Notes: generated by a model from the sequence alone, not told the origin. Shown: positions 1,503 through 44,866, counted from the stretch's first letter. The stretch: 64,000 nucleotides of DNA from Candidatus Parcubacteria bacterium (GCA_027324805.1 DAHVRZ010000001.1:2945-66944); one strand, 5' to 3'. Numbers and translations are program-made.

Positions 1503-3077
1503 ATGGCGAAAAAAGTCATGGTGCTCGTCGTGCTCGACGGATGGGGCATCGGCAGAAACGACGAATCGAATCCGATTTATGTGACGAAGCCGCAGACGTT
1601 CGCACATCTCGACGCGACCTACCCCGTAACGAGCCTGCAGGCTTCGGGTATTTCGGTCGGTCTGCCATGGGGCGAGGTCGGCAACAGCGAAGTGGGGCAT
1701 CTCACGCTCGGTGCCGGCAAGGTGCTCTATCAGTATTATCCGAAGATCACCATGGCGATCAGCGACGGATCGTTCTTCCAAAATAACGTACTGAAGGACG
1801 CCTGCGCCCACGCGCGCGCGACGGGCGGCGCAATCAATTTCGCCGGACTCCTTTCGAAAGGCAACGTTCATGCGTCGCTCGAGCATCTCCTTGCCCTTAT
1901 AAAAATGGCGAAGGGTGAGGGCGTGCCGCACATCAATCTCCATCTTTTCGCCGACGGCAAGGATGTTGCGCCGCACACGCTCGAGGGATATCTCCGCGAA
2001 CTGCCGAAGGAACATCTCGCCACGCTCATCGGACGCTATTATGCAATGGATCGCGAGGGTAACTGGTCGCTCACGGAGACCGCATACCAGCTCATGACCG
2101 GCATGGGCGGCATCGGCAAGCCTGCGGAGAACGCCGATGCGACGGCGATCATCGAGGAGAGCTGTAAGGGAGGGCAGACCGAAGAATATCTTCCGGCGAT
2201 ACGCTTCGTGGACGGCACCGGTGCCGGCGCCACGGACCACGGGCACGTAAAGGACGGCGACTCCCTCTTTTTTTTCAACTACCGCGAGGACAGCATCCAG
2301 CAGCTCGCATCCTCATTCATTCTCCCGGACTTCAATAAATTCACCGTCATGCCGTTCAGAGATCTGCACGTGGCGACGATGACGCATTACAATGACGCGT
2401 TCAACGTACCGGTCGCCTTCCCCGCCGATACCGTAGAGAACCCGCTCGGCAAAGTGCTCTCCGATGCCGGACTTACCCAACTCCGCCTTGCGGAGACGTA
2501 TAAATACGCGCACGTCACCTACTTCTTCAACGGCTACCGCGAGCCGCCCTATCCCGGAGAGTTCCGCACGCTCATTCCCTCCCTCACCGAGCTTCATCCG
2601 GAACAACATCCGGAGATGATGGCGGGTGCGATCACCGATCGGCTCATCGAGGCGATCCGCGACCGCGCGTTCGATTTCATTCTCGTGAACTATGCGAACG
2701 GCGACACCATCGCGCACACGGCCGACTATCAGGCATCGCTCGCAACGGTGAAAGTGATTGACCGCGAGATAGGACGCCTGCTCGCCGCCGTTGGCGACGA
2801 TCAGGACACGATCATCGCCATCACCTCGGACCACGGCCACATCGAATCGATGATTGACGAGGCGACCGGCCTTCCAAGAAGCCAGCATGCCCCGAATCCG
2901 GTCCCCTTCTATCTTGTCGCTCCCCAGATCAAGGGCCGGCGCTTCGTGAACGCCGATAATCTCACGCAAGAGATGCTCGGCTCTCTCGCCGACGTCGCTC
3001 CCACACTCCTCGCGCTCATGGGACGCCCCGCACCCGCCGACATGACGGGCCGCAGCATCCTGGACGGACTCATTTAG
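1503..3077 (+). CDS. gpmI: 2,3-bisphosphoglycerate-independent phosphoglycerate mutase (iPGM), copy 1
   Basis: 524 aa. VLVVLDGWGIG...GNSEVGHLTLGAGKV and the C-terminal TSDHGH metal-binding region are typical of iPGM. Extended -10 TGaTATACT lies about 8 nt upstream of the ATG. Confidence 0.92.
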   Translation: MAKKVMVLVVLDGWGIGRNDESNPIYVTKPQTFAHLDATYPVTSLQASGISVGLPWGEVGNSEVGHLTLGAGKVLYQYYPKITMAISDGSFFQNNVLKDACAHARATGGAINFAGLLSKGNVHASLEHLLALIKMAKGEGVPHINLHLFADGKDVAPHTLEGYLRELPKEHLATLIGRYYAMDREGNWSLTETAYQLMTGMGGIGKPAENADATAIIEESCKGGQTEEYLPAIRFVDGTGAGATDHGHVKDGDSLFFFNYREDSIQQLASSFILPDFNKFTVMPFRDLHVATMTHYNDAFNVPVAFPADTVENPLGKVLSDAGLTQLRLAETYKYAHVTYFFNGYREPPYPGEFRTLIPSLTELHPEQHPEMMAGAITDRLIEAIRDRAFDFILVNYANGDTIAHTADYQASLATVKVIDREIGRLLAAVGDDQDTIIAITSDHGHIESMIDEATGLPRSQHAPNPVPFYLVAPQIKGRRFVNADNLTQEMLGSLADVAPTLLALMGRPAPADMTGRSILDGLI

Positions 3078-9523: not shown

Positions 9524-9550
9524 AAAAACCGCCCCTACGGGGCGGTTTTT
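9524..9550. terminator. Bidirectional rho-independent terminator between convergent rnj and histidine phosphatase genes
   Basis: AAAAACCGCCCC-TAC-GGGGCGGTTTTT: perfect 7-bp GC stem flanked by an A-tract and a T-tract. Confidence 0.85.
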
Positions 9551-10209
9551 GTATTCTCCTCGGCGAGGTGGGCGTGGTCGTTGTAGATCCATACATTCCA
9601 CCTCGACCCTTCGCCGGATTTTTTTTCGCGGTATCGCAGGACGGTGAGTCCTGTGTTCTCCGTCTCCGACATTTTCTGGAATCTCCTGAACGCCTCGCCC
9701 GAGAGCAGATCGCCAAGCAGGATGCGCGCCGTGAGCGCGCGGAGGAAATAGCCATGGGTCACGACAAGCACCGACCGTTCCGGCCTTTCCTCGAGGAACA
9801 CCATCGCCTTTTCCGCGCGGGCCATGATGTCGTCGAAATTCTCTCCGTCCGCCACGCGCACCCCGGGCGTGTAGAGCGTCTCGTTCCACTCCCGCCAGAG
9901 CCTTGCCGCCTCTTCGTCGGTATGCGGGCTGCCGTTCACCCTTGCGGGCTTCATCCGCTCCACAAAAAGCGCCGATTCCTCCGGCCGCTTCCCCGTCGCC
10001 TTGGCGATCGCTTCCGCAGTCTCCGCGGCGCGGCGGTACGGGCTCGTTATGAACGCCTCGAAGGCGATGCTCCGCGCCCGCGCGGCGATCATCTCCGCCT
10101 GCTTCCGACCGCGGTCGCTGAGCGGCGAATCCGGCGACTGGAAGACGGGCGACACATTGTCCGCACTCTCCCCATGCCGCACGAAGTAGACTGTTTTCGC
10201 GGTGGACAT
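9535..10209 (-). CDS. Histidine phosphatase family protein (phosphoglycerate mutase-like branch)
   Basis: 224 aa. RHGE catalytic motif (VYFVRHGESADN), second motif SPYRRAAETA, C-terminal VVTHG catalytic His. Leaderless-type promoter (TGGTATGAT) just upstream. Confidence 0.85.
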   Translation of the reverse strand: MSTAKTVYFVRHGESADNVSPVFQSPDSPLSDRGRKQAEMIAARARSIAFEAFITSPYRRAAETAEAIAKATGKRPEESALFVERMKPARVNGSPHTDEEAARLWREWNETLYTPGVRVADGENFDDIMARAEKAMVFLEERPERSVLVVTHGYFLRALTARILLGDLLSGEAFRRFQKMSETENTGLTVLRYREKKSGEGSRWNVWIYNDHAHLAEENTKTAP

Positions 10210-11264: not shown

Positions 11265-14200
11265 TTAAATCTTCCTAAGGCCGATCCAGGCCTCCTGCCC
11301 TTCCATCTTTGCCGTTTCTTCGGCAAGGAATTTTTCTCCGTGTTTGTATTCGACGCGCGCGGCGCCGATCTCCGTCATGAATATCTTTTCATTGTGCACG
11401 AGGGCCTGTGCCGCTTCCGCCGGCAGTGACGCCATCGCGATGATCTTGTCCCTCGGCGAAAGTCCCGCCTTCTGGCGCAGTTCCTGGAACATGCGCACCG
11501 CTTCCCGGAGGAGGCCCTCCCGGCGAAGTTCCGGCGTGATCACAGTATCGAGCACCGGCTCCTTCGCTTTCGCGTTCACGATCACTTTTTTCACATTCAC
11601 TTCTTCCGCAAGGATCGCCTCAAGCTCTTTGCTTAATTTCACATTCACCGTGACCGAAGCGAGCGGCTGGCGAACCTTGATCCCCGCCTCCGCGCGCTTC
11701 GCGAGGCCCGCGGCCGCCGATTCCCGCACTACCGCCATTTCCGCAATTAGCTTTTTGCCTGCCGCGGGGAGTTTTGGCGCCTTGGGCCATGTTTCAAGAT
11801 GGACCGACTCCTTCATACCGCCGAGCGCGGCGTAGAGCCCTTCGCTCATGAACGGCGTGAATGGCGCCATCATTGCGACGACAGAGAGGAGGGTATGGCG
11901 AAGCGTCGCCGATGCGGCCTTATGATCCGCAGCGGTCGTCGGTTTTTGAAGACGGCGGCGCGAACGGCGGATATACCATCGGGAAAGATCATCCACGATC
12001 GCATCGAGCTCAAGCGCCGCTTCCCGGATCTCATAGCGGTCGAGTTTCGCCGTTACGGACGCCGCCGTTTCATCGAGCCGCGCGAGGATCCAGCGGTCGA
12101 GCACATTCTTCGGGTTCGCCTTCCGGCCGGCAACCGCAGGCGCGAGCTTCGCCCCCCTGTCCGCATACGTCTTCCAGAACACGAATGAGTTATAGACGAT
12201 GAGATGGGTGCGGCGGAACGCTTTTGCAATCTCGTTCTCGTCGAAATTCTTCGGCTCGCCGAACGGCGAACCGGTATAGAAGTACCAGCGGACGGCGTCC
12301 ACGCCGTATTTATCAATCACCGCAAACGGCTCCACGATATTACCCTTCGACTTCGACATTTTTTTGCCGAACTTGTCATTGATGAGACCGAACGTGATCA
12401 CATTGCGGTACGGCGCTTTGTGGCCGAGCGCGGTCGCGATCGCCATGAGCGTATAGAACCACCCGCGCGTCTGGTCCATGCCTTCGGCAATGTAATCCGC
12501 GGGATATTCGAGGCCGGACAGCGTTTTTATATTCGTCTTCGGAAGGGAGAAGGGATAATGGGCCTGCGCATAGGGCATCGCGCCGGAATCGTACCAGACG
12601 TCCGCCACCTCGCGCACACGCCTCATCGTCCCATGGGCGTTCTTTTTTGCGCACGCGGCACACGGGAATGCGATCTCGTCCACGAAAGGCCGATGGAGAT
12701 CAACTTCGCCGCTATCGTTGCGCGGCACGGTTTTCAGATGGAGTTCGCGCACATCGGCAAATCCGATGAATGCGCCTTTTTTTTCTTTGGCGCCGCGCTT
12801 CTCCATCTCTTCGATCGCACGCTTCTCGCTCCACCCTTCGGCCGTCTGGAAGAGCGCCCAGGCAGGATACTCATGAGTCACGACCAGGATGTTCTTTCCT
12901 TCATATTGCTTCTCGCAATCCTCAAGGAACTTCCATACTCGCGAACGTACGTCGCGCACCGACTCGCCTCCTTCGGGACGCTTCTCAAAGCGCGATTCGA
13001 GCGTCGGGAAGAATTCGCGGTACTTCTCGTCACGGAGACCCGTAAGCGACGGGCCAAGATGGATCTCTTCGAGCCGCTTATCGGCCGTACATTCCTTCGC
13101 CGGCACGCCGAGCTCCTTCATCGCAATCTCTGCGGTCTCGGACGTGCGCTCGATGTCGGAATGGATGATGAGGTCGATCTTCTCCCTCCTCTTCTTGAGC
13201 GCCGCCGCGAATGCCTTTGCCGACCGGGCGGCCTCTTTCTTTCCGCGCGGAGTGAGCTTGAGATATTTACGCTGGCCGGAATCGAGGATATCGAAAATGT
13301 TGCTCTCCGCCTCGCCATGGCGCATCACCCAGTAGCGGTTCTTGGAACCGCCCGCAAGCTGCGAAAGTTCGTCCATGCTCCCCACCACCTCCTTGTGACC
13401 GCACCCGGCGCATTCCCATACCGGCAGAGGCGCGCCCCAGTAGCGTTCGCGCGAGAGGTTCCAATCCTTCACTTCCCGGATCCATTCGCCGAAGCGGCCC
13501 TTCTTTACGTGGGCCGGCATCCAGTTCACGGAGGCGTTGTTCGCCTGAAGCTCTTTGCGCAGCCTGGACATTGCGATGAACCACGAGGTGCGCGCGTAAT
13601 AAAGCACCGGCGTACCGCACCGCCAGCAGAACGGATATTCGTGTGCGTACGGTTCCGTGCGGAGGAAATTACCGTGCGCTTTGAGATGCTCGAGCACCGC
13701 CTGTTCGGTCTCCTTCGCCTTGGCGTACATGCCCGCAAGCATCGGCACGTCCTTTGTGAACTTACCCTCGTCATCCACGGTATGGTGTTCCGGCAGGCCC
13801 TCCTTCTTTCCAAGCGCGTAGTCGTCCTCGCCATACATCACGGCCGTGTGCACCACGCCCGTGCCGTCGGTCGTCGTCACGAACGACGCCGGATATACCT
13901 TGTATGATTTCGGCGATCTCAATTTCTCCACATCGAAGAGCGGCTCGTATTCAAGGCCGACGAGCTGTTCGCCTTTCACCGCCCAAAACTTTCCCGCGCC
14001 TTCCAGTCCGAGACTCGCGATCCGATCCGTTGCCGCAATCAGATATTCGTCCCCGACCTCCACCGCGCGATACTCGATCTTCGGCCCGACCGCGAGCGCC
14101 ACGTTGCCCGGCAAGGTCCACGGCGTCGTCGTCCACGAAAGGATGTATATCGTATCGGAGGGCTGTATGACGTGGCTTCCGATCTTCTGCCCCGGCTTCA

Positions 14201-14882
14201 GTTTGAACTTCACATATACCGACGTATCGGTCACTTCCTGGTAGCCCTGTGCGAGCTCGTGCGACGAAAGCGCGGTTCCGCATCGGGTACACCACGGCAC
14301 CACCTTGTGGCCTTTATAGAGCAGATCGCGCTTTGCGAGCCGGGACAGGCTCCACCAGATGGATTCGATGTATTCCGGCGCGTAGGTCACGTACGCGTTC
14401 TTGAGATCCAGCCAATAACCGATGCGGCGGGTCATGCGCTCCCACTCGTCTTTATAGATCCAGACTTGCTCCTTTGCAGCCTCGTTGAACCTCTTGATGC
14501 CATATTGTTCGATGTCGCGCTTCGTTTTGAAGCCGAGCGCTTTTTCGGCAGCCATCTCGACAGGAAGGCCGTGCGTATCCCATCCCGCCCGGCGCGGAAC
14601 ATGGTATCCCTGCATGGTCTTGTAGCGAAGGACGACGTCTTTAACGACGCGGGAGAGCACGTGATGGATGCCGGGCTTGCCATTCGCATACGGAGGCCCT
14701 TCGTAAAACACGAACTCCTTCGAACCCTTCTTCTTCGCGAGGGATTTCTCGAAAATATGCCGCTCATCCCAGAATGCGAGCACTTTTTCTTCCGTACCGG
14801 GAAGATTGAATCCGTCACCGAGGAAATCGGGCGCACTTTTGGATGAAAGTGGCACTGCTTTACGTCGCTGTTTTTTGGGCAT
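11265..14882 (-). CDS. ileS: Isoleucyl-tRNA synthetase (type 2-like) carrying an inserted histidine-phosphatase domain
   Basis: 1205 aa. HHVLSR(HIGH-like)...KMSKS. CP1 editing domain present. Zn-knuckle region WECAGCG ... FPCAACAK is interrupted by about 210 aa (approx residues 513-722; nt approx 12717..13346) with an intact RHGE, SDIERTSETA and VVTHEY histidine-phosphatase signature. Confidence 0.9.
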   Translation of the reverse strand: MPKKQRRKAVPLSSKSAPDFLGDGFNLPGTEEKVLAFWDERHIFEKSLAKKKGSKEFVFYEGPPYANGKPGIHHVLSRVVKDVVLRYKTMQGYHVPRRAGWDTHGLPVEMAAEKALGFKTKRDIEQYGIKRFNEAAKEQVWIYKDEWERMTRRIGYWLDLKNAYVTYAPEYIESIWWSLSRLAKRDLLYKGHKVVPWCTRCGTALSSHELAQGYQEVTDTSVYVKFKLKPGQKIGSHVIQPSDTIYILSWTTTPWTLPGNVALAVGPKIEYRAVEVGDEYLIAATDRIASLGLEGAGKFWAVKGEQLVGLEYEPLFDVEKLRSPKSYKVYPASFVTTTDGTGVVHTAVMYGEDDYALGKKEGLPEHHTVDDEGKFTKDVPMLAGMYAKAKETEQAVLEHLKAHGNFLRTEPYAHEYPFCWRCGTPVLYYARTSWFIAMSRLRKELQANNASVNWMPAHVKKGRFGEWIREVKDWNLSRERYWGAPLPVWECAGCGHKEVVGSMDELSQLAGGSKNRYWVMRHGEAESNIFDILDSGQRKYLKLTPRGKKEAARSAKAFAAALKKRREKIDLIIHSDIERTSETAEIAMKELGVPAKECTADKRLEEIHLGPSLTGLRDEKYREFFPTLESRFEKRPEGGESVRDVRSRVWKFLEDCEKQYEGKNILVVTHEYPAWALFQTAEGWSEKRAIEEMEKRGAKEKKGAFIGFADVRELHLKTVPRNDSGEVDLHRPFVDEIAFPCAACAKKNAHGTMRRVREVADVWYDSGAMPYAQAHYPFSLPKTNIKTLSGLEYPADYIAEGMDQTRGWFYTLMAIATALGHKAPYRNVITFGLINDKFGKKMSKSKGNIVEPFAVIDKYGVDAVRWYFYTGSPFGEPKNFDENEIAKAFRRTHLIVYNSFVFWKTYADRGAKLAPAVAGRKANPKNVLDRWILARLDETAASVTAKLDRYEIREAALELDAIVDDLSRWYIRRSRRRLQKPTTAADHKAASATLRHTLLSVVAMMAPFTPFMSEGLYAALGGMKESVHLETWPKAPKLPAAGKKLIAEMAVVRESAAAGLAKRAEAGIKVRQPLASVTVNVKLSKELEAILAEEVNVKKVIVNAKAKEPVLDTVITPELRREGLLREAVRMFQELRQKAGLSPRDKIIAMASLPAEAAQALVHNEKIFMTEIGAARVEYKHGEKFLAEETAKMEGQEAWIGLRKI

Positions 14883-20962: not shown

Positions 20963-21097
20963 AATAGAGGCATCATATCACGCTCCCGCGGGTCACGCAT
21001 CTTTTTCCCGCCGTAAAACATTGCTTTATTCTTTAAAATGTTTTATAATTTCTCCAGTTGCTGCCCTTAAACACAGCGGCAAACAATGGAGGAGAAA

Positions 21098-21904
21098 ATG
21101 GGATTCTTTTATATGCCAGGAGAGATGTGCATGGCCGAATTCGTTCAGCCTCGCGTCACCGGTGCAGACCTCAACTACCAGGGATCGATCACCATCGATC
21201 GGGAAGCGCTCGATGTTTCGGGCCTGCTCCCCGGCCAGATGGTCTATATCGACAACGTAGTGCGCAGGGGTCCATCATGGCGCACTTACATCGTCCCCGG
21301 CGAACCCGGGAAAGGCGAAATCATCATGAACGGGCCGCCGGCCTATCACTTCAAAAAAGGCGATCCTGTCACGATCCGCGGAAGCGCCTTCATTCCCTTC
21401 GGGGATATGCCGAGCATGGCCCATGGCCATACGAAGGTATATTTCTCCCAGGGCGAAAGGGTGCCGAATCGCGTAAAGCGCCTGGAGCATATTCCAATCC
21501 CCGCCACACACTGGCGGCAGATGTGCATCAGCAAACTCCACCGTCTTGTGATCACGGGGACTTCCCCTGAAGGACCCGAAGAGCTTGTGGTGGACGGCGA
21601 CATCCTTGATGCCGCGGGATTTCCCCCGGGGATCGAGGTGCAGTTCACCAGCTTGCGCGACGGCGTCCTTCGCCGGACGTGCGTGCAGGCAGGCCCTCGC
21701 GGAACAGGTGCCGCCGAAATCCATGGATCCGGCGCGCAGTACATCGCAGCCGGAGTGAGAGTGGTCACACTTGCGGAAGTTTTGCTTCCTTACGAGGATG
21801 CCGCAAAAGTCCACGGACCCCAGGTCGCATTCTTCGACGAATCCCGGACCGACCGCAACATCATCCGAGAAGTGAAGATTGGATGGCGGCCAGCCTCCTC
21901 TTAA
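21098..21904 (+). CDS. Tandem (duplicated) aspartate-1-decarboxylase-like protein: two PanD-like double-psi beta-barrel domains fused
   Basis: Domain 1 (QPRVTGADLNYQGSITID...WRTYIV) keeps the Gly-Ser pro-enzyme cleavage site and the Arg/Thr-Tyr residues. Domain 2 (KLHRLVITGTSPEGPEE...LDAAG...NGAAA...PQVAFFDE) keeps KLHR but has Glu in place of the pyruvoyl Ser. Start ambiguous (ATGs at 21086, 21098, 21113, 21131; SD-supported at 21098 and 21131). Confidence 0.7.
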   Translation: MGFFYMPGEMCMAEFVQPRVTGADLNYQGSITIDREALDVSGLLPGQMVYIDNVVRRGPSWRTYIVPGEPGKGEIIMNGPPAYHFKKGDPVTIRGSAFIPFGDMPSMAHGHTKVYFSQGERVPNRVKRLEHIPIPATHWRQMCISKLHRLVITGTSPEGPEELVVDGDILDAAGFPPGIEVQFTSLRDGVLRRTCVQAGPRGTGAAEIHGSGAQYIAAGVRVVTLAEVLLPYEDAAKVHGPQVAFFDESRTDRNIIREVKIGWRPASS

Positions 21905-23550: not shown

Positions 23551-24831
23551 ATGAGATTCAGCCGCAAGACAAAAAAATTGCTCGGCATTGCCGGACCAGG
23601 GGTAATCACGGGGGCCGCGGACGATGACCCGTCGGGGATCGCCACCTACTCGCAGACCGGCGCGCAATTCGGCTACGGCCAGCTTTGGACGGCGGCGTTT
23701 CTACTCCCCTTCATGACAGCGGTGCAGGAAGCGGTTGCACGTATTGGTGCAGTGACGGGCAAGGGCGTCGCCGCGATCGTCAAACAGCATTATCGAAAGG
23801 AGGTACTTTGGGGTGTTATCGCGCTCGTTCTCGTTGCGAACACGATCAATATCGGCGCCGACCTCGGCGCGATGGCGGCGGCGGCACGGCTTGTCGTTCC
23901 CGGTATCCCCTTCGCCATATTCACACTTTTCTTTACCGTAGTCATTCTTCTTCTTGAGATATTCGTCTCCTACAAACGATACGCTCGCATTCTTAAATGG
24001 CTCGCCCTCGCCCTTCTCGCCTATGTTGCGACCGCGCTCATCGTCGCGGAACCCTGGGGTACGCTCCTTCGGGCAACGTTCGTACCGCATATTGATTTCA
24101 GTTTCGCGTTCCTCTTTATCATCACCGGCGTTTTCGGTACGACGATCTCTCCATATATGTTCTTCTGGGAAGCGTCCGAAGAGGTCGAGGAGGAGGAGGA
24201 GCGAAAAATGACCCGCAAGGATGCCCCGCCGCGTCTCACAAAAGGCTTCCTCCGCAAGCTCCGCCTCGACAACTTCGTGGGCATGCTTTCCTCCGAAGTC
24301 ACCACGTGGTGCATCATTGTCGTCGGCGCGACGGTGCTCAATGCCCACGGCGTCACCAATATCGCAACCTCGGCCGATGCTGCGCGCGCACTCGAACCTC
24401 TCGTTCGGACCTTTCCCAACGCAGGCTTCATCGCAAAACTGCTTTTCTCCATCGGCATCCTCGGACTCGGCTTCCTCGCCGTTCCCGTATTGTCCGCCTC
24501 CGCATCCTATGCGGTCGCCGAGGCGATGAACTGGCGCGAAGGGCTCAACCGGAAGTTCAAACGAGCGCACGGCTTTTACGGAGTGATCACCATTGCCACG
24601 CTCATCGGACTTATGATCAACTTCGTCGGCATCGACCCCGTGAAAGCGCTTGTCTTCACCGCCGTAGCAAACGGCGTTGCCGCCGTACCGCTTATTTTCG
24701 TCATCGGAAAGATCGCCGGCGACGGCCGGATTATGGGCGAACACAAGAGCGGATGGCTTTCGAATATCTTTGTGTGGGCAACCTTCATTATTATGGGCGC
24801 TGCAGCGATCGCCATGTTCGCCACGCTCTAA
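23551..24831 (+). CDS. mntH: NRAMP-family divalent metal (Mn2+/Fe2+) transporter
   Basis: 426 aa. GPGVITGAADDDPSGIATYSQTGAQFGY is the NRAMP consensus. Extended -10 TGGTATACT lies about 9 nt upstream (near-leaderless). Confidence 0.9.
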   Translation: MRFSRKTKKLLGIAGPGVITGAADDDPSGIATYSQTGAQFGYGQLWTAAFLLPFMTAVQEAVARIGAVTGKGVAAIVKQHYRKEVLWGVIALVLVANTINIGADLGAMAAAARLVVPGIPFAIFTLFFTVVILLLEIFVSYKRYARILKWLALALLAYVATALIVAEPWGTLLRATFVPHIDFSFAFLFIITGVFGTTISPYMFFWEASEEVEEEEERKMTRKDAPPRLTKGFLRKLRLDNFVGMLSSEVTTWCIIVVGATVLNAHGVTNIATSADAARALEPLVRTFPNAGFIAKLLFSIGILGLGFLAVPVLSASASYAVAEAMNWREGLNRKFKRAHGFYGVITIATLIGLMINFVGIDPVKALVFTAVANGVAAVPLIFVIGKIAGDGRIMGEHKSGWLSNIFVWATFIIMGAAAIAMFATL

Positions 24832-26929: not shown

Positions 26930-28246
26930 ATGAACATAAAAACCATTCGCGCGCGGCAGATCCTTGATTCGCGCGGCAACCCAACCGTGGAGGCGGACGT
27001 TATTTTGGAAAACGGCGCAACGGGACGCGCGGCGGTCCCTTCCGGCGCTTCGACGGGCAGCCACGAGGCGATCGAACTTCGCGACGGCAATCCAAAACTC
27101 TACGGAGGGAAGGGCGTATTGAACGCGGTGGCGAACGCACAAAGCGAGATTGCGGCCGCGGTCACCGGCATGGATGCCGAGGATCAGAAAGCGCTCGACG
27201 AAAAGATGATCGCGCTCGACGGCACTCCGAACAAATCGCGGCTTGGCGCGAATGCGATCCTCGCGGTCTCGCTTGCATCCGCCAAAGCGGCGGCGGCGGC
27301 GAAGGGCGTCCCTTTTTTTGAGCACGTGAACGGACTCGGACGTGCGGCTGGCATCGCCGATGACGGCGGCGGCGCGACGCTTCCCGTGCCGATGATGAAC
27401 ATCATAAACGGCGGCAGGCACGCGGCCGGTTCGACCGATATCCAGGAATTCATGATCATTCCCGCCGGAGCGACGACATTCTCCGATGCGCTCCGCATGG
27501 GCACCGATATTTTCCATGCATTGAAGAAAGTGCTCGCGGGCAAGGGCTATGGCACGACGGTCGGCGACGAAGGCGGCTACGCGCCATCCGTAAAAGGAGG
27601 CAACGCCGAAGCGCTCGACCTTATCGGCGCAGCCGTATCCGCCGCAGGCTACACGCTCGGCACGGACGTCATGCTCGCGCTCGATGTTGCGGCATCGGAA
27701 CTCCGCGATCCTTCCTTTAATAACGGCGCCGGCGGCTATCGCCTTGCCACCGAAGACCGCTCGCTCTCGACCGACGAGATGATCGCCTGGCTCAAAGCGC
27801 TCGCAGAGAAATATCCGATCGCCTCCATCGAGGACGGCCTCGGCGAGGACGACTGGGCCGGATGGACCTCGATGACCGCCGCCATCCCACGACAGCTCGT
27901 CGGCGACGATCTCCTTGTTACGAATACCGAATTCCTTTCGCGCGCCATCGGCGAAAAGGCGGGCAACGCGATCCTCATCAAGCCGAACCAGATCGGCACG
28001 CTCACCGAAACGATCGCCGCGATAAAAATGGCGAAAGATGCGGGCTGGCGCACCATCATTTCTCACCGCTCCGGCGAAACGGAGGATGTGACGATCGCCC
28101 ACCTTGCCGTCGGGCTCGGCACGGGACAGATCAAGACCGGCTCGCTCTCGCGCACCGACCGCGTGGCGAAATACAACGAACTGCTCCGCATCGAAGAGAC
28201 TCTCGGCGCAAAAGCAACCTATCCCGGCAAGAAGATTTATGGATAA
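26930..28246 (+). CDS. eno: Enolase (phosphopyruvate hydratase)
   Basis: [25 protein letters not shown]-terminus. TATACT hexamer 6 nt upstream of this ATG (the ORF also has ATGs at 26924 and 26867). Stop overlaps the gpmI copy 2 start (ATGGATAA). Confidence 0.92.
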
Positions 28247-29825
28247 GATCAGGCCCGTAGCCCTGATCATCCTCGACGGCTGGGGTCACCGGGAAGACGC
28301 CTCTCATAACGCCATCGCCAAAGCACGCACGCCCTTCTTTGATTCGCTCCTTGCGCGCTATCCGCACACGCTTCTCGACGCGAGCGAGGAATACGTCGGC
28401 CTGCCGCACGGCCAGATGGGCAACAGCGAGATCGGCCATATGACGATGGGGGCCGGACAGGTCATTGACGTCGATCTCGTGAAGATCAACAAGGCCGCCG
28501 AGCACGGAGCATTTTCGACGAATCCCGCTTTCACCGAGCTCTTCGACCATGTGAAACGCCACGATGCCACCCTGCATGTGATGGGGCTTGTCGGCACGGG
28601 CGGCGTACATAGCCATCAGAACCATCTTCATGCATTCCTCCGCGCCGCGAAAGCGACAGGTATAACGAAGGTCGCCGTTCACGCAATTACCGATGGGCGC
28701 GATCTTCCTCCGCAAAGCGCCGCAAACCATCTCCGCGAACTCGAGGCGCTCCTCGCCGATCTCGGCATCGGCTTCATTGCCACCATGGGCGGCCGTTTCT
28801 ATGCCATGGACCGCGATAAGAACTGGGACCGCGTCGGGAAGGCCGAAGCGGCGGTCTTTGAAGGCAATGCTGCCCGGCGCGAATCCCGCACGCCGTCCGC
28901 AGTACTCGAAGAGTTATATAAAGAGGGCGTGATGGATGAACACCTTGAACCGGTCGTATTCCTCGACGGCATCGGCAGGAATGGAGCGGCGGGCGACGGG
29001 GGTGCAGCGTGGACGATCGGCGCGCACGACGGCGTTTTCTTCTTCAACTTCCGCCCCGACCGGGCACGCCAGATGACGGAGCGGTTCCTTGCGCACAGGA
29101 ATCCGCTCGATCTCTTCATTGTCACGCTCACCGAATACGACAAAACGCTCACTGCCGCCGGCGCTCACGTGGCATTCCCGCAAAGCCGTGCCACAACCTC
29201 GCTTGCAGCTGAGATCGCGGCCGGCGGACTCACGCAGGCGCACATCGCCGAAACGGAAAAGTATGCGCATGTCACCTATTTTTTCAATGGAGGCAACGAA
29301 GCGCCGCACAAGGGCGAACGATTCTATCTTATCGAGAGCCGCAAAGACGTTGCAACGCACGACCTTGCGCCCGAAATGCGAGCAAAGGAGATCGCGGATA
29401 CGGCAATCGAACGTATCGCCGCAGGTGATGATTTTCTCGTGGTGAATTTCGCGAACGCCGATATGGTCGGCCATACGGCAAACCGTCCGGCGATCGTGGC
29501 CGCGGTGGAAACCGTGGACCTCGAACTCCGGCGCATCGTGGATGCCATCCTCGCGCGCACCGGCGCGGCGATCGTAACGGCGGACCATGGCAATGCGGAA
29601 ATGAACAGAGATCCCGAGACCGGCGCACGCCACACCGCACATACCACGAATCTCGTCCCTTTTGTCGTCGCGTCAGACAACCCATTATTACATCTCCGTA
29701 CACGCGGCAGGACTGATGCCGGTCATGAAGCGTCAGGCACACTCGCCGATATCGCACCCACCATCCTCCATCTTCTCGGTCTTCCTGTTCCCGAAGGCAT
29801 GACGGGAAGAAACATGATCGAATAA
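28239..29825 (+). CDS. gpmI: 2,3-bisphosphoglycerate-independent phosphoglycerate mutase (iPGM), copy 2, translationally coupled to eno
   Basis: [20 protein letters not shown]...[15 protein letters not shown]. Roughly 35-40% identical to copy 1 by eye. Start ATG overlaps the enolase stop. Confidence 0.9.
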
Positions 29826-30204: not shown

Positions 30205-31722
30205 TTACGCGAATCCCGGGAAAAAATCGCTCTTGATACGGAAGCGGGACACGCCCATATCCTTCAATGTTTTTTCGAACGCTTCGACCATCGCATGGGG
30301 GCCGGAGATGTAGAACGTGCGATCCCGATAATCCGGGATCTGCCTCATAATGAGGCCCGCATCGATCTTCCCTGCATACACCCCGGACGACGAAGCATTC
30401 CCGTCCGTCACGGCATACACCGTTCGCACGCCGAGCTCGGTCCGTGCCCTTTCGAGGATATCGCCATAAGCGATATCATCGGGTGCCTTGTTCGAATACA
30501 GCACTACGATATCGCGCTGTTCACCTTTGTCCAAAAGATAACGGATCATACTTCTGAACGGCGTGATGCCTATGCCTCCGGCAATGAATACAAGCTTTTT
30601 CTTTTTATTCCTCGGCAGAACAAATCCACCCGAAAGATGAGCCGCGGATATTCGGTCGCCCACCTTCATCGCCGCAAGCGTCTGTTTGAACGTGCTTGCC
30701 TTTGGATAGAACTTCACGCCGAGGCGCACGGTGCTCTCCGTCGGCGCCGACGCAAGCGTAAAGTATCGCCGATTGCCGCGATTGTCCGAACCATCGTGCG
30801 CAAGCGTCCACTCCATGTACTGACCCGGCGCGAACGAGAACCTTCTGTCAGGAGAGAACACAAAGTCGTACGCGTCATTCGCAGCTTCTTCAATGCGCTT
30901 CAGTGTAAGCATATAGCGTCCTTTAGGGCTTACGATATATGAAAAGATGTTTCCAATAAGGAGCGCGAGCTCCGGCGAGAGATAGAATCCCCCTATATTC
31001 ACATTCGGCGCAAAAAGGAATCCAACGAGTGCGCCGTACGCGATGCGCAATGGGCGATTCGGGGGCGTGGTGAGCGGCTCCGTGAGCATGATAAACGCGA
31101 AGAAAAAGAACGCCGAATGGATTATCGTCTGCACGATCGCGGTCCACGCATTCCCCTGCCCCGCGGTCACCGCGGACGTCACGAGCGCCACGAGTGCGAA
31201 GCTTGCCACAAGGTCCGTCCTCTGAATCTTGCGCACAACGAGCAATCCTCCGACAAGAACGAACGGAAGGAGCGCAAGATTGCCTCCGACCCACCACGTT
31301 GCGGCGCGGCCGATAAGCAGCGCGGAAAGTGCGGCACCGAATGCGGCGGGATTGAAAAGATGCCGCTTGCCGAGCGCAAAAAGATATTTCGATGCCATCG
31401 CCCAGACGGAAACGAAGATAAGGAATCCTATGCCGGCGGCATCGGTCGCAACGGCCGGCGGAATAATGAGCGCAAGGATGAACGCCGTGATGTATACGGA
31501 CTCGACATTCGTGACCGCATCGAACACTTTTGCAAAGATCCAATTTGCGGCGATGCATACGGCCATAATGACCGCCGCCGAGAAGACAAGCTCCGCGGGA
31601 CCGAACGGGAGGATACCGAAGAAACTGAACACAAATGCCGCTCCAAGGAGAACCTCAAGATAGTAGAGCACCAGACGATACATGGTCGTCCGATTCAGGA
31701 TATTATCGATCCATTTGGGCAT
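30205..31722 (-). CDS. Membrane flavoprotein oxidoreductase: polytopic N-terminal domain (RnfD/NqrB-like, LFNPAAF motif) fused to a ferredoxin-NADP-reductase-like FAD/NAD(P)H-binding module
   Basis: 505 aa. About 9 TM helices then RRYFTLAS (RxYS-type FAD motif) and GGIGITP (NAD(P)-binding GGxGxxP). Confidence 0.7.
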   Translation of the reverse strand: MPKWIDNILNRTTMYRLVLYYLEVLLGAAFVFSFFGILPFGPAELVFSAAVIMAVCIAANWIFAKVFDAVTNVESVYITAFILALIIPPAVATDAAGIGFLIFVSVWAMASKYLFALGKRHLFNPAAFGAALSALLIGRAATWWVGGNLALLPFVLVGGLLVVRKIQRTDLVASFALVALVTSAVTAGQGNAWTAIVQTIIHSAFFFFAFIMLTEPLTTPPNRPLRIAYGALVGFLFAPNVNIGGFYLSPELALLIGNIFSYIVSPKGRYMLTLKRIEEAANDAYDFVFSPDRRFSFAPGQYMEWTLAHDGSDNRGNRRYFTLASAPTESTVRLGVKFYPKASTFKQTLAAMKVGDRISAAHLSGGFVLPRNKKKKLVFIAGGIGITPFRSMIRYLLDKGEQRDIVVLYSNKAPDDIAYGDILERARTELGVRTVYAVTDGNASSSGVYAGKIDAGLIMRQIPDYRDRTFYISGPHAMVEAFEKTLKDMGVSRFRIKSDFFPGFA

Positions 31723-31729
31723 CGGATGA

Positions 31730-32314
31730 TTATGCTTTTGCCTGCGCGAGCGCCGAGGCGAGCGACTGCTGGAATGCCTGGCTCGTGAACGTCGCGCCCG
31801 AGACGATGTTCACGTTCGCGCTCTGGGCCGCAATGGCCTCCTGCGTGAGATAAGGCATCGCCTGCTCGTTGATGAAAACCGACGTGCTGTGCGTGTTCGG
31901 ATACTGGAGGAACTTCACGTCCGTCAGCTTGCCGCCCTGAACAACCGCCTCGACCTGGACCGTGCCGTAATAGGCATCCGCCTGGCCGCCGGTATAGGTT
32001 CCATCGGTATACTGCCCTTTTGGCTTCGGCGCTTGCGTCGGCGCCGGAGATGATGTCGCGCCGGAAGAGCTTCCGGATGGAGCTGCGGCACCCGAAGAAG
32101 ATTGACCCAAAGAGGCGGATGACCGGCTACCGGAAGGAGGGTTCCCCGCCGCCTGATTCCCCGAGGAGGAGGGCGCGGTCGTTGCCGTGCCGCTGTTCTC
32201 TGCGATCGCGGGCGTCGTTGCCGAGGGCGCCGTCGAAGCCGCTCCTTGGCCCATGAACACCATATAGAACGCGGAGGCCGCGATAAGTCCCAGTGAAACG
32301 AGGAATTTCTTCAT
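31730..32314 (-). CDS. Secreted FMN-binding domain protein (RnfG/NqrC-like)
   Basis: Start at MKKFLVSLGLIAASAF (signal peptide). Low-complexity Ser/Gly linker. C-terminal FMN_bind domain with the flavinylation motif VSGATFTS (Thr target of ApbE-type flavin transferase). Immediately upstream of, and co-directional with, the reductase gene. Confidence 0.75.
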   Translation of the reverse strand: MKKFLVSLGLIAASAFYMVFMGQGAASTAPSATTPAIAENSGTATTAPSSSGNQAAGNPPSGSRSSASLGQSSSGAAAPSGSSSGATSSPAPTQAPKPKGQYTDGTYTGGQADAYYGTVQVEAVVQGGKLTDVKFLQYPNTHSTSVFINEQAMPYLTQEAIAAQSANVNIVSGATFTSQAFQQSLASALAQAKA

Positions 32315-32427
32315 GGAATACGAAGGGTTTCTTTCCTGATAGTACGCAAGCAAACTCGGGTTTTATGCGTTACGCACTGTAATTCCCGCGCGGCGCGTAC
32401 TATCATTAAATATCATCAATCGGCACT

Positions 32428-33036
32428 ATGTCGAGTTTCGCGATTATGGCATACAACGATAACGCTACGGAAGAATCGCGGACCGAGAGCGCCGACGAAG
32501 CGCTTGTCCCCCTCGCGATAGCTGACGATCGCTATTTTGGGATACTCGTCGAACGCTACGAGACGAGGCTGCGGCGCTATATCATGCGTTTCATCAATTG
32601 CAGTCCCGAGGATGCCGAAGATATCGTGCAGGACACCTTCATCAACGTCTATCGCAATCTGAACGGTTTCGACACCGACCTCAAGTTTTCGTCGTGGCTG
32701 TATCGCATTGCCCATAATGAGGCAGTGAGCCACCTGCGTCGCATCACGGCGAGACCCGCAACGCCATGGGAGGACGACAAGCTCGAAGCACTCGCGTCGG
32801 ATGCCGATGTGGAGCGCGAGCTTCACAGGAAAATGGACGGCACCATAATCCGCGCAGCGGTCGATCGCCTCGATGCGAAATACAAAGAAGCGCTCGTTCT
32901 CCGTTACTTCGAGGATAAGAGCTACGAAGAAATATCGGACATCCTCCAGAAGCCGACGGGGAGCGTATCGTCGCTCATCACGCGGGCAAAACGCCTTCTC
33001 GTCAAAGAACTTAAAAAGGCCGCGACGGAACAATAA
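32428..33036 (+). CDS. ECF-family RNA polymerase sigma factor (sigma-70 regions 2 and 4)
   Basis: 202 aa. Region 2 IVQDTFINVYRNLNGF. Region 4 helix-turn-helix SYEEISDILQKPTGSVSSLITRAKRLL. Confidence 0.88.
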   Translation: MSSFAIMAYNDNATEESRTESADEALVPLAIADDRYFGILVERYETRLRRYIMRFINCSPEDAEDIVQDTFINVYRNLNGFDTDLKFSSWLYRIAHNEAVSHLRRITARPATPWEDDKLEALASDADVERELHRKMDGTIIRAAVDRLDAKYKEALVLRYFEDKSYEEISDILQKPTGSVSSLITRAKRLLVKELKKAATEQ

Positions 33037-33046
33037 CGACAACGCC

Positions 33047-33544
33047 ATGTCCGACACCAGCGAAAAAATACTCAAAGAGATCCATGAGCGCCACGTGACG
33101 CACCGGCCGAGGTGGCATTTCCTCATCAGAAATGCATCGGTCTTGACCGCACTCGCCGCCGCGATTTTCTTTGGCGCCCTTTCCATCAGCATCGAAGAGT
33201 CCGTGCTTGAAAAAGGATTCGGCATCGGCGGAGCGTTCGGCTTCAGTTCCGTAAAACTCCTCCTCCAGGGCGTCTCGCTGCTTTGGATCGCTTCCACCGC
33301 CATCTTCATCGTACTCGCATTTCTCAACCTCAGGCACGTAAGGGAAGGGTACCGTTGGCGCGCCTCGTGGATCGTCGTCGGCATCGTCGTCGTGGTGATA
33401 ACCTTCGGCCTCCTCTTCCGGCAGGAAGGGATCGGCGAGCGCGCGGAGTCGGCGCTCGAACGCAATTCGTTCTATAATGGAGCTTTCCACATCGACCACC
33501 CCAATGACGAACCCCAACAGCCGTACGGAGCAGGAAATCCATAA
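33047..33544 (+). CDS. Putative membrane anti-sigma factor
   Basis: 165 aa directly downstream of the ECF sigma gene (about 10-nt gap). Short cytoplasmic N-terminus then 3 TM helices. Confidence 0.5.
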   Translation: MSDTSEKILKEIHERHVTHRPRWHFLIRNASVLTALAAAIFFGALSISIEESVLEKGFGIGGAFGFSSVKLLLQGVSLLWIASTAIFIVLAFLNLRHVREGYRWRASWIVVGIVVVVITFGLLFRQEGIGERAESALERNSFYNGAFHIDHPNDEPQQPYGAGNP

Positions 33545-34004
33545 AGTATTCGACATCACACTCCTGCTTAAAGGACTCCACGCTTCCCTCGAGGTGCTCG
33601 GCGGGATCGCCCTTTACGCCGTGAGTGCCGGCGGCATCCTCAATCTTGCAAATGCGCTTTTCGGCGGCGAGATCGGCGAGGATCCGCACGACCCGATCGC
33701 CAACTATCTCCTCGGCCTCGCGCAGACATTCGGCGCGAATGACCGTTCATTCGCCGCATTCTATCTTCTCACCCACGGCATCGCGAACGGCCTCATCGTC
33801 ATCGCCCTTTGGCGCGAAGAGATCTGGGCCTATCCCATATCATTCGCGGTCCTCGGCTCGTTCATCGTCTACCAGCTTTACCTGCTCACGCTCGGCTTCT
33901 CCTGGTGGATCGTCGCCATCACCGTGCTCGACGCCGCCATCGTCGCGCTTGTATGGCATGAATACGGCGTACTCAAGACGCGGCGCGCCGCAACGCGGGG
34001 ATAA
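33504..34004 (+). CDS. Hypothetical polytopic membrane protein (start uncertain, 33477 or 33504)
   Basis: 4 TM helices. Overlaps the previous gene by at least 41 nt in another frame. Confidence 0.45.
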   Translation: MTNPNSRTEQEIHKVFDITLLLKGLHASLEVLGGIALYAVSAGGILNLANALFGGEIGEDPHDPIANYLLGLAQTFGANDRSFAAFYLLTHGIANGLIVIALWREEIWAYPISFAVLGSFIVYQLYLLTLGFSWWIVAITVLDAAIVALVWHEYGVLKTRRAATRG

Positions 34005-43585: not shown

Positions 43586-44866
43586 CTATCGTTCAGCATC
43601 ATACAGCGCCATAATCTCCGCCGGCGAAAGCGCACGACCATACACGCGGATATCATCTTCCCATCCGTTGAAAAGCTGCCCGCTGTACCCCGACCCAATA
43701 TAAATCGGGAGGTTGTTCGTATTGATAGGGGTGTTGTAGGCAACAGAAAACTGCTGGGAACCATTCAGATAAATCCGCCTATATGCTCCGTCGTAGACGC
43801 CACACGCGAACGTCCATGTGTTGGCATTGATTGCGGGAGTTCCGGAATCGCCGTAACCTGTATCGTTTACTGCAAAATAGATATGGCCCCCATTAATGTA
43901 GAGATACCACAGCGAATTGGACGCTCCGCCCCCGAACCCTTTTGTTATTGCCCGCTGGGCGACAGAGGTATTGTTTGGATATATCCAAACACATACGCTC
44001 ACGGAATTTGTGACGTTATAGGCCGATATGGCAGGCACGGAAATATATGTGGTCGCCCCATCGAATGCTCCCGCATACGATCCCACCTTACCTCCAATGT
44101 AGTAAGTGCCGTTTTGGCCGACCGCCGTGCCGATCCAAGCGCCATTGTTCCCGTTGATCCCCTCGAGCGCAACCGTACCCGATCCCTCGTTGAGCGGCCA
44201 ATATCCCACCAGCCCCGAAGGATTGTAAAGGAGGGATATTGAAGGGACGCCCGCGGAAATGATTTCTGGGAAAAGGCTTGTCTGCGGATTGTTCGCGTAG
44301 TTCTGTTTGTACTTTGAAGATTCGAAGTCCGCGGTGGCCTCATATTGAGATCCGCTCATGCCGTAGGAATAGAAGAGTCCGGAGGAGGTTTGATTCACGG
44401 GATCCACAGGGAGAGAACCAAATGGGGCACCGGCGGAGATCTGACTGAAATTAACAGGGAGCCATCCGGTACCGTTCGTGGCGCGGTATGTTGCGGAAGA
44501 GGCACAGTTCCATGACTGACCGGCACCCAGTGCTGGGAGGTCAAGATCCCCGCAGGTCGAAGAGCTGTCCGATATGGACACATATGCAAGGGAGGATGTT
44601 CCGAGGGAATACGAGGGTGTCCCCGAGAGGTCGGTTTGGTAAAGGTTCAGGGCGGAGCCGAGGGTTGCCATATCGGAGACCCGGTTTGCATCCCTCGATT
44701 GAGCGAGGAGCTGACTAGGATTCAAGACAAGGACTACAACAACCGCGAGGATCGCGATAATGGCGATCACAACAAGAAGCTCAATAAGAGTGAATGCGGA
44801 GCGGAAACGCGATGGCCGATCATTACATTCCGCCGCGCCAAGAAAGCGTATATATTTCATGTACAA
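43586..44866 (-). CDS. Type IV pilin-like protein with C-terminal LamG-like (concanavalin A-like lectin) domain
   Basis: N-terminal RSA/FTLIELLVVIAIIAILAVVVVLVLNPSQLL prepilin signal (Ala at -1). C-terminal about 200 aa GYWPLNEGSG...SLWYLYINGGHIYFAV...IRVYGRALSPAEI resembles Laminin_G_3. Confidence 0.8.
   Translation of the reverse strand: MYMKYIRFLGAAECNDRPSRFRSAFTLIELLVVIAIIAILAVVVVLVLNPSQLLAQSRDANRVSDMATLGSALNLYQTDLSGTPSYSLGTSSLAYVSISDSSSTCGDLDLPALGAGQSWNCASSATYRATNGTGWLPVNFSQISAGAPFGSLPVDPVNQTSSGLFYSYGMSGSQYEATADFESSKYKQNYANNPQTSLFPEIISAGVPSISLLYNPSGLVGYWPLNEGSGTVALEGINGNNGAWIGTAVGQNGTYYIGGKVGSYAGAFDGATTYISVPAISAYNVTNSVSVCVWIYPNNTSVAQRAITKGFGGGASNSLWYLYINGGHIYFAVNDTGYGDSGTPAINANTWTFACGVYDGAYRRIYLNGSQQFSVAYNTPINTNNLPIYIGSGYSGQLFNGWEDDIRVYGRALSPAEIMALYDAER
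44741..44787. repeat. About 47-nt near-identical repeat (pilin N-terminal coding segment), copy B
   Basis: GCGAGGATCGCGATAATGGCGATCACAACAAGAAGCTCAATAAGAGT matches 1372..1418 with 4 mismatches. Confidence 0.7.

Follow-up and report, generated by a model that had tools for sequence, protein, structure and literature searches.

Members of the Candidate Phyla Radiation (CPR), or Patescibacteria, are generally described as having no respiratory chains. A stretch of 64,000 nucleotides from a Candidatus Parcubacteria bacterium (GCA_027324805.1, DAHVRZ010000001.1:2945-66944; hereafter the window, meaning the whole stretch analysed) carries two adjacent genes that raise the question of whether such a cell could use its cytoplasmic NAD(P)H to reduce a flavin held outside the membrane: one encodes a 505-residue protein fusing an RnfD/NqrB-like membrane domain to a flavin reductase module, and the other an exported protein of the FMN_bind family (FMN, flavin mononucleotide). 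This direction of transfer had been proposed by an earlier reading of the sequence alone, without database searches (hereafter the sequence-only reading), and our analysis supports it. We think it probable that electrons would run from NAD(P)H to the flavin adenine dinucleotide (FAD) of the reductase module, on to a non-covalent flavin in the membrane domain, and from there to FMN on Thr175 of the exported partner, which would pass them to an external acceptor. The best-supported reading is that the module is the NADH-side half of an RNF or NQR complex cut to two proteins, with an FNR-type reductase replacing RnfC; it is supported by the domain assignments, a fold matching RnfD and NqrB only, the loss of the flavinylated loop, invariant riboflavin-site positions, intact RxY[ST] and GGxGxxP motifs, the N-in anchor and flavinylation motif of the partner, the operon linkage, sigma factor orthologues beside the module in other lineages, and published models.

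A system of this kind has already been described. Méheust et al. 2021 (eLife; PMC8238504) defined an 'NQR/RNF-like system' as a PF03116-PF00175 fusion in a flavinylation-associated cluster, that is, with an FMN_bind or ApbE gene encoding a signal peptide within five genes, reported 127 clusters, mainly from Actinobacteria and CPR, and proposed unidirectional transfer from NAD(P)H to extracytosolic FMN. Huang et al. 2024 (mSystems; PMC11334425) presented an AlphaFold-Multimer model of the Ktedonobacter pair, in which the membrane domain is without the NqrB/RnfD flavinylation threonine and the FMN site of the partner lies near an apparent non-covalent flavin site. The window has the PF03116-PF00175 fusion, the adjacent exported FMN_bind protein, a membrane domain without the flavinylation threonine and a flavinylation motif in the partner, and is thus an NQR/RNF-like system, not a new kind. 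Since the architecture is that of the 2021 system, the sequence-only reading had re-derived a published prediction, the mechanism it favoured being the one given in both published analyses. For the window itself the gain is correct annotation and not discovery, the most interesting loose ends concerning ApbE, which is missing from the window and signal-less in the relatives.

The fusion protein and its exported partner

The features of the module are as follows.

30205..31722, minus strand: fusion gene, 505 amino acids, RnfD/NqrB-like membrane domain joined to an FNR-like module for FAD and NAD(P)H (Pfam, NCBIfam)
30919..31722, minus strand: membrane domain, residues 1-268, about ten predicted helices, N-in/C-in, with motifs IIPPA, LFNPAAF and TEPLTTPP
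31339..31359, minus strand: LFNPAAF, fusion residues 122-128
31060..31083, minus strand: TEPLTTPP, in the membrane domain of the fusion
30205..30918, minus strand: FNR-type module, predicted cytoplasmic, residues 269-505, with RRYFTLAS, GGIGITP and C-terminal DFFPGFA
30748..30771, minus strand: RRYFTLAS, the FAD motif RxY[ST], fusion residues 318-325
30559..30579, minus strand: GGIGITP, the NAD(P)H motif, fusion residues 382-388
31730..32314, minus strand: FMN_bind protein, 194 amino acids (PF04205, 1.7e-08, 35.4 bits against a cut-off of 22)
32249..32314, minus strand: signal peptide or type-II anchor MKKFLVSLGLIAASAFYMVFMG, with no Cys (no lipobox) and no twin-arginine
31781..31801, minus strand: flavinylation motif SGATFTS, FMN_bind residues 172-178, Thr175 being the predicted FMN-phosphoester site

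The fusion starts 7 nucleotides past the stop of the FMN_bind gene, and its 505-residue start is backed by the conservation of residues 6-13 in homologues. Its N-terminal half matches Pfam NQR2_RnfD_RnfE (PF03116) at 43.9 bits against a cut-off of 27.7, so the RnfD/NqrB-like assignment made by the sequence-only reading passed the profile check that it had proposed, and the C-terminal half matches NAD_binding_1 (PF00175) at 2.9e-14 (54.1 bits, cut-off 22). Because both scores exceed curated thresholds and the database search returned more than 7,600 homologues, the best named ones from metagenome-assembled genomes of Paceibacterota and Minisyncoccia, the domain matches are not due to chance; the TIGR01946 (rnfD) model gave 21 bits, below its cut-off of 207. 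In NCBIfam residues ~270-505 belong to the FNR/flavohemoprotein-reductase family, with flavohemoprotein, Hcr, PaaE and BenC reductases as best matches. The FNR type of this module was thus seen correctly from the sequence alone, whereas its likeness to NqrF in particular did not hold, flavohemoprotein (2.3e-27) outscoring NqrF (8.3e-09) with a concordant ranking in the PDB; by sequence the module is a generic reductase of the flavohemoglobin/PDR type. The fusion has no Fe-S domain, and there is a single Cys in the whole protein.

The membrane domain resembles solved RnfD only weakly in sequence: a single-sequence search against the PDB gave no match, and its profile found RnfD at E=0.013. Aligned to Escherichia coli RsxD, it scored E=7e-05 with hhalign and was colinear in MAFFT, with IPP, FNPA, GG..(R/Q)K and T(D/E)P as common motifs. 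Since the full-length fusion model gave only FNR-family matches in the fold search, residues 1-268 were modelled alone with AlphaFold (predicted local distance difference test, pLDDT, 70; predicted template-modelling score, pTM, 0.70) and compared with the PDB using Foldseek. The top 14 matches were all RnfD or NqrB (probability 1.0, TM 0.58-0.71) and the next had E>0.6. An unrelated transporter family, the outcome that the sequence-only reading held would undo its proposal, is therefore not what the fold search finds. That the domain is a transporter fortuitously fused to a reductase seems to us barely credible: a urea-transporter fold is echoed weakly and non-significantly (rank 25, E=1.4), whereas all significant fold matches are RnfD/NqrB, the riboflavin-site positions described below are invariant, and the gene is tightly linked in operons with FMN_bind and ApbE.

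Two features of this domain bear on how it could handle a flavin. Between FNPA and the GGVWLLWQK helix there are about 105 residues in RsxD, including the flavinylated T187, versus 30 in the window protein, and by alignment the outer loop of ~72-75 residues that bears the covalent FMN in RnfD/NqrB is deleted; no [ST][GQ]A[ST] motif occurs in residues 1-268. From the predicted secondary structure we read the charged loops KRH (119-121), RKIQR (164-168) and KGR (267-269) as facing inside, which would give ten helices with both termini in, the site of the deleted loop outward and the FNR module in the cytoplasm. The second feature is the inner flavin site. In Vibrio cholerae NqrB, riboflavin lies in the cytoplasmic half and receives hydrogen bonds from T162, N200, N203 and D346 (PMC9325719). 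These correspond in the window to T79, H121, N124 and E215, two of them identical, one a D-to-E and one an N-to-H change, all four invariant across 25 homologues at 62-81% identity. The mapping is a two-step alignment inference (window to RsxD, RsxD to NqrB) and not a structure, the second step showing a constant offset of +81 over the contact stretch with TDP paired with TDP, and it supports the presence of a non-covalent flavin in the membrane domain.

Could the same domain also conserve energy? Coupling of the transfer to Na+ or H+ translocation would be compatible with the electron path given above and would add a claim to it. The domain is homologous to NqrB and RnfD of Na+-pumping complexes, and E74, D170, E215 and E251 are charged, invariant and located in or near membrane helices; yet NqrD/E or RnfA/E are absent, and these are the subunits that structural work on NQR ties to conformational coupling, while the centre of NqrB holds riboflavin and not a channel (PMC9325719). 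We consider such a mini-pump improbable.

The exported partner with SGATFTS, placed directly upstream of the fusion by the sequence-only reading, is borne out by PF04205, by the coordinates of the motif and by the hydrophobic N-terminus. The protein consists of the signal or anchor, a linker rich in S, A, P and G (residues ~25-100) and a C-terminal FMN-binding domain (~106-191). Its export signal was read from N-terminal hydrophobicity, and 63 of the 84 partner open reading frames (ORFs) of related loci passed the hydropathy threshold in their first 60 residues. The ATG at 32314 is favoured over the TTG at 32353 because homologues begin MKKxLLS, and this start followed by a helix recurs in related partner proteins, as does QSANV[DNS]x[VI]SGA[TS]x[TS]SxAF near their C-terminus; the motif stretch of the window protein, QSANVNIVSGATFTSQAF, is conserved in them and aligns to PDB 8p2a ('FMN-binding domain-containing protein'), a covalent-FMN domain of solved structure, IVSGATFTS lying opposite AVSGATYTS (E=1.9e-13). 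By sequence the domain is compact (~85 residues) and 8p2a-like. BLAST found no similarity to E. coli RsxG, so the 'NqrC-like' label given from the sequence alone is valid at the level of the Pfam family FMN_bind only.

Operon structure and the missing ApbE

To place the pair among its relatives, a scan of species-representative genomes yielded 80 loci at 42-68% identity, which belong to Patescibacteria (Paceibacterota, Saccharibacteria, Peregrinibacteria and others), to Chloroflexota/Ktedonobacteria and to some Alphaproteobacteria (e.g. Kaistia, Mesorhizobium). They were annotated with hidden Markov models (HMMs) built for this analysis and are given L numbers here; operon counts refer to the 78 in which the fusion ORF is complete. 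The family is sizeable, with matches to the membrane domain at E<=1e-30 in about 350 clusters (50% identity). Co-conservation, another check that the sequence-only reading had proposed, is extensive, with FMN_bind adjoining the fusion in 70/78 species-level loci. The order is FMN_bind-ApbE-fusion in 65/78 (83%), where the ApbE stop overlaps the fusion start; five have FMN_bind directly before the fusion with no ApbE between (one of them with ApbE 4 kb away), and the remaining loci are partial or stand-alone. The two-gene form noted from the sequence thus holds here and not in most relatives, and because these have a signal-less ApbE between the genes it is a derived minority form, represented by the window, L006 (an 81% relative) and L001 (a 65% relative). 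One stand-alone fusion, L076:11521-12707, in which no FMN_bind partner was detected, is followed by a DsbA-like thioredoxin and possibly a VKOR-like membrane protein, neighbours that by sequence hint that the fusion is connected there with thiol redox outside the cytoplasm.

No ApbE had been visible to the sequence-only reading, and none was found in the 64-kb window by tblastn or by a six-frame search with an HMM made from the relatives' ApbE, nor in Pfam scans of 37 window ORFs. The contig is at least 224 kb long, of which the window covers 64 kb, and in an ApbE profile search none of the best 120 of ~8,000 matches lay on that contig. ApbE is also absent within +/-10 kb in L001, L052 and L082, and in L012 it lies 4 kb off on the other strand. 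These absences, together with the retention of ApbE in the operon by the majority of relatives, are what one would expect if the module were decaying or working without covalent flavin, ApbE having been lost and the FMN_bind protein being unflavinylated or binding flavin non-covalently in a weakened or repurposed module. We nevertheless find this unlikely: the two genes are intact, with 76-81% identity to their counterparts in the closest relatives, L012 makes relocation of ApbE a known outcome, the search reached only the part of the contig given above, and every ApbE-less cluster keeps SGA[TS], which argues that flavinylation persists.

The ApbE proteins of the relatives pose a question of their own. 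All of those found in related loci (74/74), most of them encoded between the FMN_bind and fusion genes (e.g. L004:9267-10004, L011:9264-10004), are ~245 amino acids long, with starts (MKxTRxIMGMPxTVE) 5-8 residues ahead of the first core strand. A hydrophobic N-terminus is absent from every one of them, even after extension to the first possible start, as are a signal peptide and a lipobox, and no clear membrane segment was seen along the protein. With KGWA, GGDI, ATSG and EADRxATA conserved (PF02424, 2e-37) they look catalytically intact. This is a topological puzzle because the presumed substrate is exported and the enzyme is signal-less, and it makes the site of flavinylation a concrete question. 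ApbEs that stay in the cytosol have been described for substrates located there, such as Klebsiella fumarate reductase, and neither published description (PMC8238504, PMC11334425) comments on the missing signal. Flavinylation before export, another role for ApbE, or an unexpected topology are possible explanations. A more far-reaching version, to which we give little credence, would have the flavin attached off the textbook extracytosolic route (by a cytosolic ApbE before export, or with no covalent flavin in ApbE-less genomes) in a module that is the main NAD(P)H-reoxidising outlet of a fermentative CPR cell, possibly ion-coupled and activated by a dedicated sigma factor of the extracytoplasmic function type in response to the envelope or host surface.

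The divergent sigma operon and neighbouring genes

A sigma factor operon of the extracytoplasmic function (ECF) type is transcribed away from the module, and a small ORF follows the fusion gene.

32428..33036, plus strand: ECF (group 4) sigma factor (Sigma70_r2 1.6e-18, Sigma70_r4_2 3.2e-14; TIGR02937 2.4e-32, 111.8 bits against 42.9)
33044..33544, plus strand: multi-pass membrane protein, 166 amino acids, positional anti-sigma candidate, starting 8 nucleotides after the sigma gene
33477..34004, plus strand: DUF2127 membrane protein (PF09900, 4.3e-27), third gene of the sigma operon
32332..32410, no strand assigned: intergenic region between the divergent operons, holding an inverted pair of GCGTACTATCA boxes 47 nucleotides apart, each ~25-30 nucleotides upstream of one start codon
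29866..30195, minus strand: small single-pass membrane ORF, 109 amino acids, with a low-complexity tail, starting 10 nucleotides after the fusion gene

Of the divergent sigma/anti-sigma pair seen from the sequence alone, the sigma factor is secure, having regions 2 and 4 only at about 200 residues as expected for the ECF type, and its neighbour is indeed a membrane protein; the anti-sigma identity found no family match. The 166-residue protein has no Pfam or NCBIfam family, no recognisable anti-sigma domain (ASD/ZAS) and only ~25 cytoplasmic residues ahead of its first membrane helix. It has a 72% identical orthologue in L006, and it has in common with the sigma partners of L001, L040, L068 and L078 an N-terminal motif, ILKEI..RPRWHF, followed by a membrane helix, those partners being 236-251 amino acids long with an extra C-terminal domain. 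The anti-sigma label accordingly marks a candidate, named for its position and this short motif. Orthologues of the sigma factor lie beside the module in the same four loci at 35-38% identity (E 1e-30 to 1e-36) and in L006 at 80%, so that the linkage spans at least five lineages with differing gene orders, co-directional or divergent, in clusters with and without ApbE. A DUF2127 gene as third member of the sigma operon was found elsewhere only in L006.

In the divergent intergenic region the box pair and its 47-nucleotide spacing are conserved in L006, as GCGTATAAT / ATAATACGC, and would fit back-to-back promoter -10 elements. A sigma-70 scan of this region found no promoter, and an ECF-type -35/-10 assignment was discarded, the distance from the CGTA-type boxes to an AAC-type -35 being ~13 nucleotides and not 16-17. 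The ECF sigma factor and its membrane partner would probably control expression of the module upon an envelope signal; regulator linkage is not mentioned in the published descriptions of NQR/RNF-like systems (PMC8238504, PMC11334425).

Regulators of another type also occur near the module. A histidine kinase with an OmpR-type response regulator lies within a few kb in ~20/83 loci (including L016, L018, L020, L022, L027, L036, L040, L058, L071, L079 and L082), which suggests that envelope signals commonly control the module through different regulators. Small secreted or anchored DUF5666 proteins are encoded within ~2 kb of the module in ~10 lineages (L006:8972-9679, L012:11579-12358, L054:8177-8623, L029, L032, L047 and others), and the anti-sigma-like partners of L001, L040, L068 and L078 end in a beta-rich domain resembling DUF5666; the window has neither. 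An iterated HMM of the 166-residue protein drifted into secreted proteins of this DUF5666 type, and its locus counts were not used.

The 109-residue ORF has no Pfam family; it has a positional counterpart in L006/L007, with 54% identity across the membrane segment, and small ORFs in L004 and L011 have similar N-termini. Being positionally conserved in close relatives, it may be a third component.

The remaining gene content of the window is typical of CPR, with aminoacyl-tRNA synthetases, glycolysis genes, RNase J and a pilin-like protein. An Nramp divalent-metal transporter (23551..24831, plus strand) lies 5.4 kb from the module and in the same relative position in L006; a role as its partner in iron reduction is unsupported, as three glycolysis genes lie between and the synteny extends only to the closest relative. 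There are apparently two cofactor-independent phosphoglycerate mutases in the 64 kb, one at 1503..3077 (plus strand; Pfam) and one at ~28230..29825 (plus strand; by synteny with the Pfam-annotated L006 orthologue), the latter in a pyruvate kinase-enolase-mutase group adjoining the flavin module. An isoleucyl-tRNA synthetase-type protein of 1205 residues (11265..14882, minus strand) contains an inserted His_Phos_1 domain (histidine phosphatase/PGAM-like; residues 518-688, Pfam 2e-28), and a stand-alone His_Phos_1 gene lies nearby (9535..10209, minus strand). The 272-residue ORF of PanD, aspartate decarboxylase (21086..21904, plus strand), has its Pfam domain in residues 13-101 only, the remainder being either a long C-terminal extension or a mis-called ORF. 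The protein encoded at 43586..44866 (minus strand) joins a pilin-type methylation motif (N_methyl) at its N-terminus to a Laminin_G_3/concanavalin-like lectin domain and may be a pilus-tip adhesin, in keeping with an episymbiotic lifestyle.

Proposed electron path and comparison with known systems

How, then, would the two proteins work together? The FAD of the cytoplasmic FNR module would take electrons from NAD(P)H and hand them to a non-covalent flavin at the equivalent of the NqrB riboflavin site, in the cytoplasmic half of the membrane domain. The next carrier would be the FMN held covalently on Thr175 of the FMN_bind protein, which may dock where RnfD and NqrB carry their own flavinylated loop. 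This FMN would finally reduce an extracytoplasmic acceptor, for which Fe(III), oxygen, a flavin or quinone in solution and a redox enzyme of the envelope are candidates. A fermentative CPR cell would in this way gain an electron outlet that regenerates NAD(P)+, or reducing power at its surface.

Flow in the opposite sense, in which the FMN_bind protein would feed electrons of an external donor to cytoplasmic NAD(P)+, has some precedent, as RNF is reversible. The NQR chain, too, goes from FMN-C and FMN-B on the outside to the inner riboflavin (PMC9325719). Against this, uphill reduction of NAD(P)+ is unlikely without an ion-motive coupling partner, FNR-fusion architectures such as NOX/FRE export electrons, and both published analyses favour the outward direction, which leaves reversed flow very unlikely in our view.

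Several observations do weigh against the outward path. The absence of ApbE from the 64 kb makes covalent flavinylation in this organism a prediction, and the lack of export signals in the relatives' ApbEs conflicts with flavinylation outside the cell. The structural models are of moderate confidence (pLDDT 70-76). Any ECF sigma factor lies within 4.5 kb in only 8/78 loci (~10%), others being near two-component systems. We found no biochemical or experimental work on any family member in the literature, and no mention of RnfD, NqrB or ApbE in that on CPR.

If the outward path is true, a widespread and conserved outlet from NAD(P)H to the cell surface would change the view of redox balance in CPR and of their interaction with hosts and minerals. 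The module is also the simplest RNF/NQR derivative known that keeps the flavin wire, which makes it a tractable two-protein model for transmembrane flavin-to-flavin transfer.

Among known systems the NQR/RNF-like one is the closest, having in common with the window the fusion, the adjacent exported FMN_bind protein with its motif, the occurrence in CPR and the proposed one-way outward flow. The window cluster differs in being without the ApbE that 83% of relatives have between the genes, and in having the ECF sigma factor and membrane protein.

With the NADH-side half of RNF (RnfC to RnfD to RnfG) the module shares the RnfD fold, the IPP/FNPA/T[DE]P motifs, an outside FMN_bind partner and, as proposed, a transmembrane flavin-to-flavin path. 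In contrast to RNF, no homologues of RnfA/B/C/E were found among the 37 window ORFs scanned against Pfam, an FNR module stands in for RnfC, and the flavinylated loop of RnfD (T187 in E. coli RsxD) is deleted; without a ferredoxin side, the window module has neither a semicircular path nor any evident ion coupling.

Na+-NQR has in common with it the four riboflavin-contact positions, which are polar and invariant in the module, an FNR-type NADH dehydrogenase module and a covalent-FMN partner, the last being predicted here. What the window has is limited to a B-like domain, an FNR module and an FMN_bind protein, among glycolytic or regulatory neighbours, whereas NqrA/D/E, the 2Fe-2S centres and a known quinone site are missing; the FNR module resembles flavohemoglobin reductases at least as closely as NqrF, and the proposed direction of electrons through the B domain is opposite.

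The NOX/FRE enzymes (e.g. SpNOX) likewise join a membrane conduit to a C-terminal FNR-type dehydrogenase that exports electrons from NAD(P)H, and the dehydrogenases match structurally. Their six-helix bis-haem domain, however, is unrelated to the ten-helix RnfD/NqrB fold of the window protein, in which the PF01794 domain of that family was not found.

In flavin-based extracellular electron transfer of Listeria (Ndh2, EetA/B, PplA, FmnB), electrons come from a type-II NADH dehydrogenase through a quinone pool, unlike the path proposed here, and the ApbE homologue, FmnB, is extracytosolic. What that system has in common with the module is its terminal carrier, an FMN_bind protein at the cell surface to which an ApbE-type enzyme attaches the flavin.

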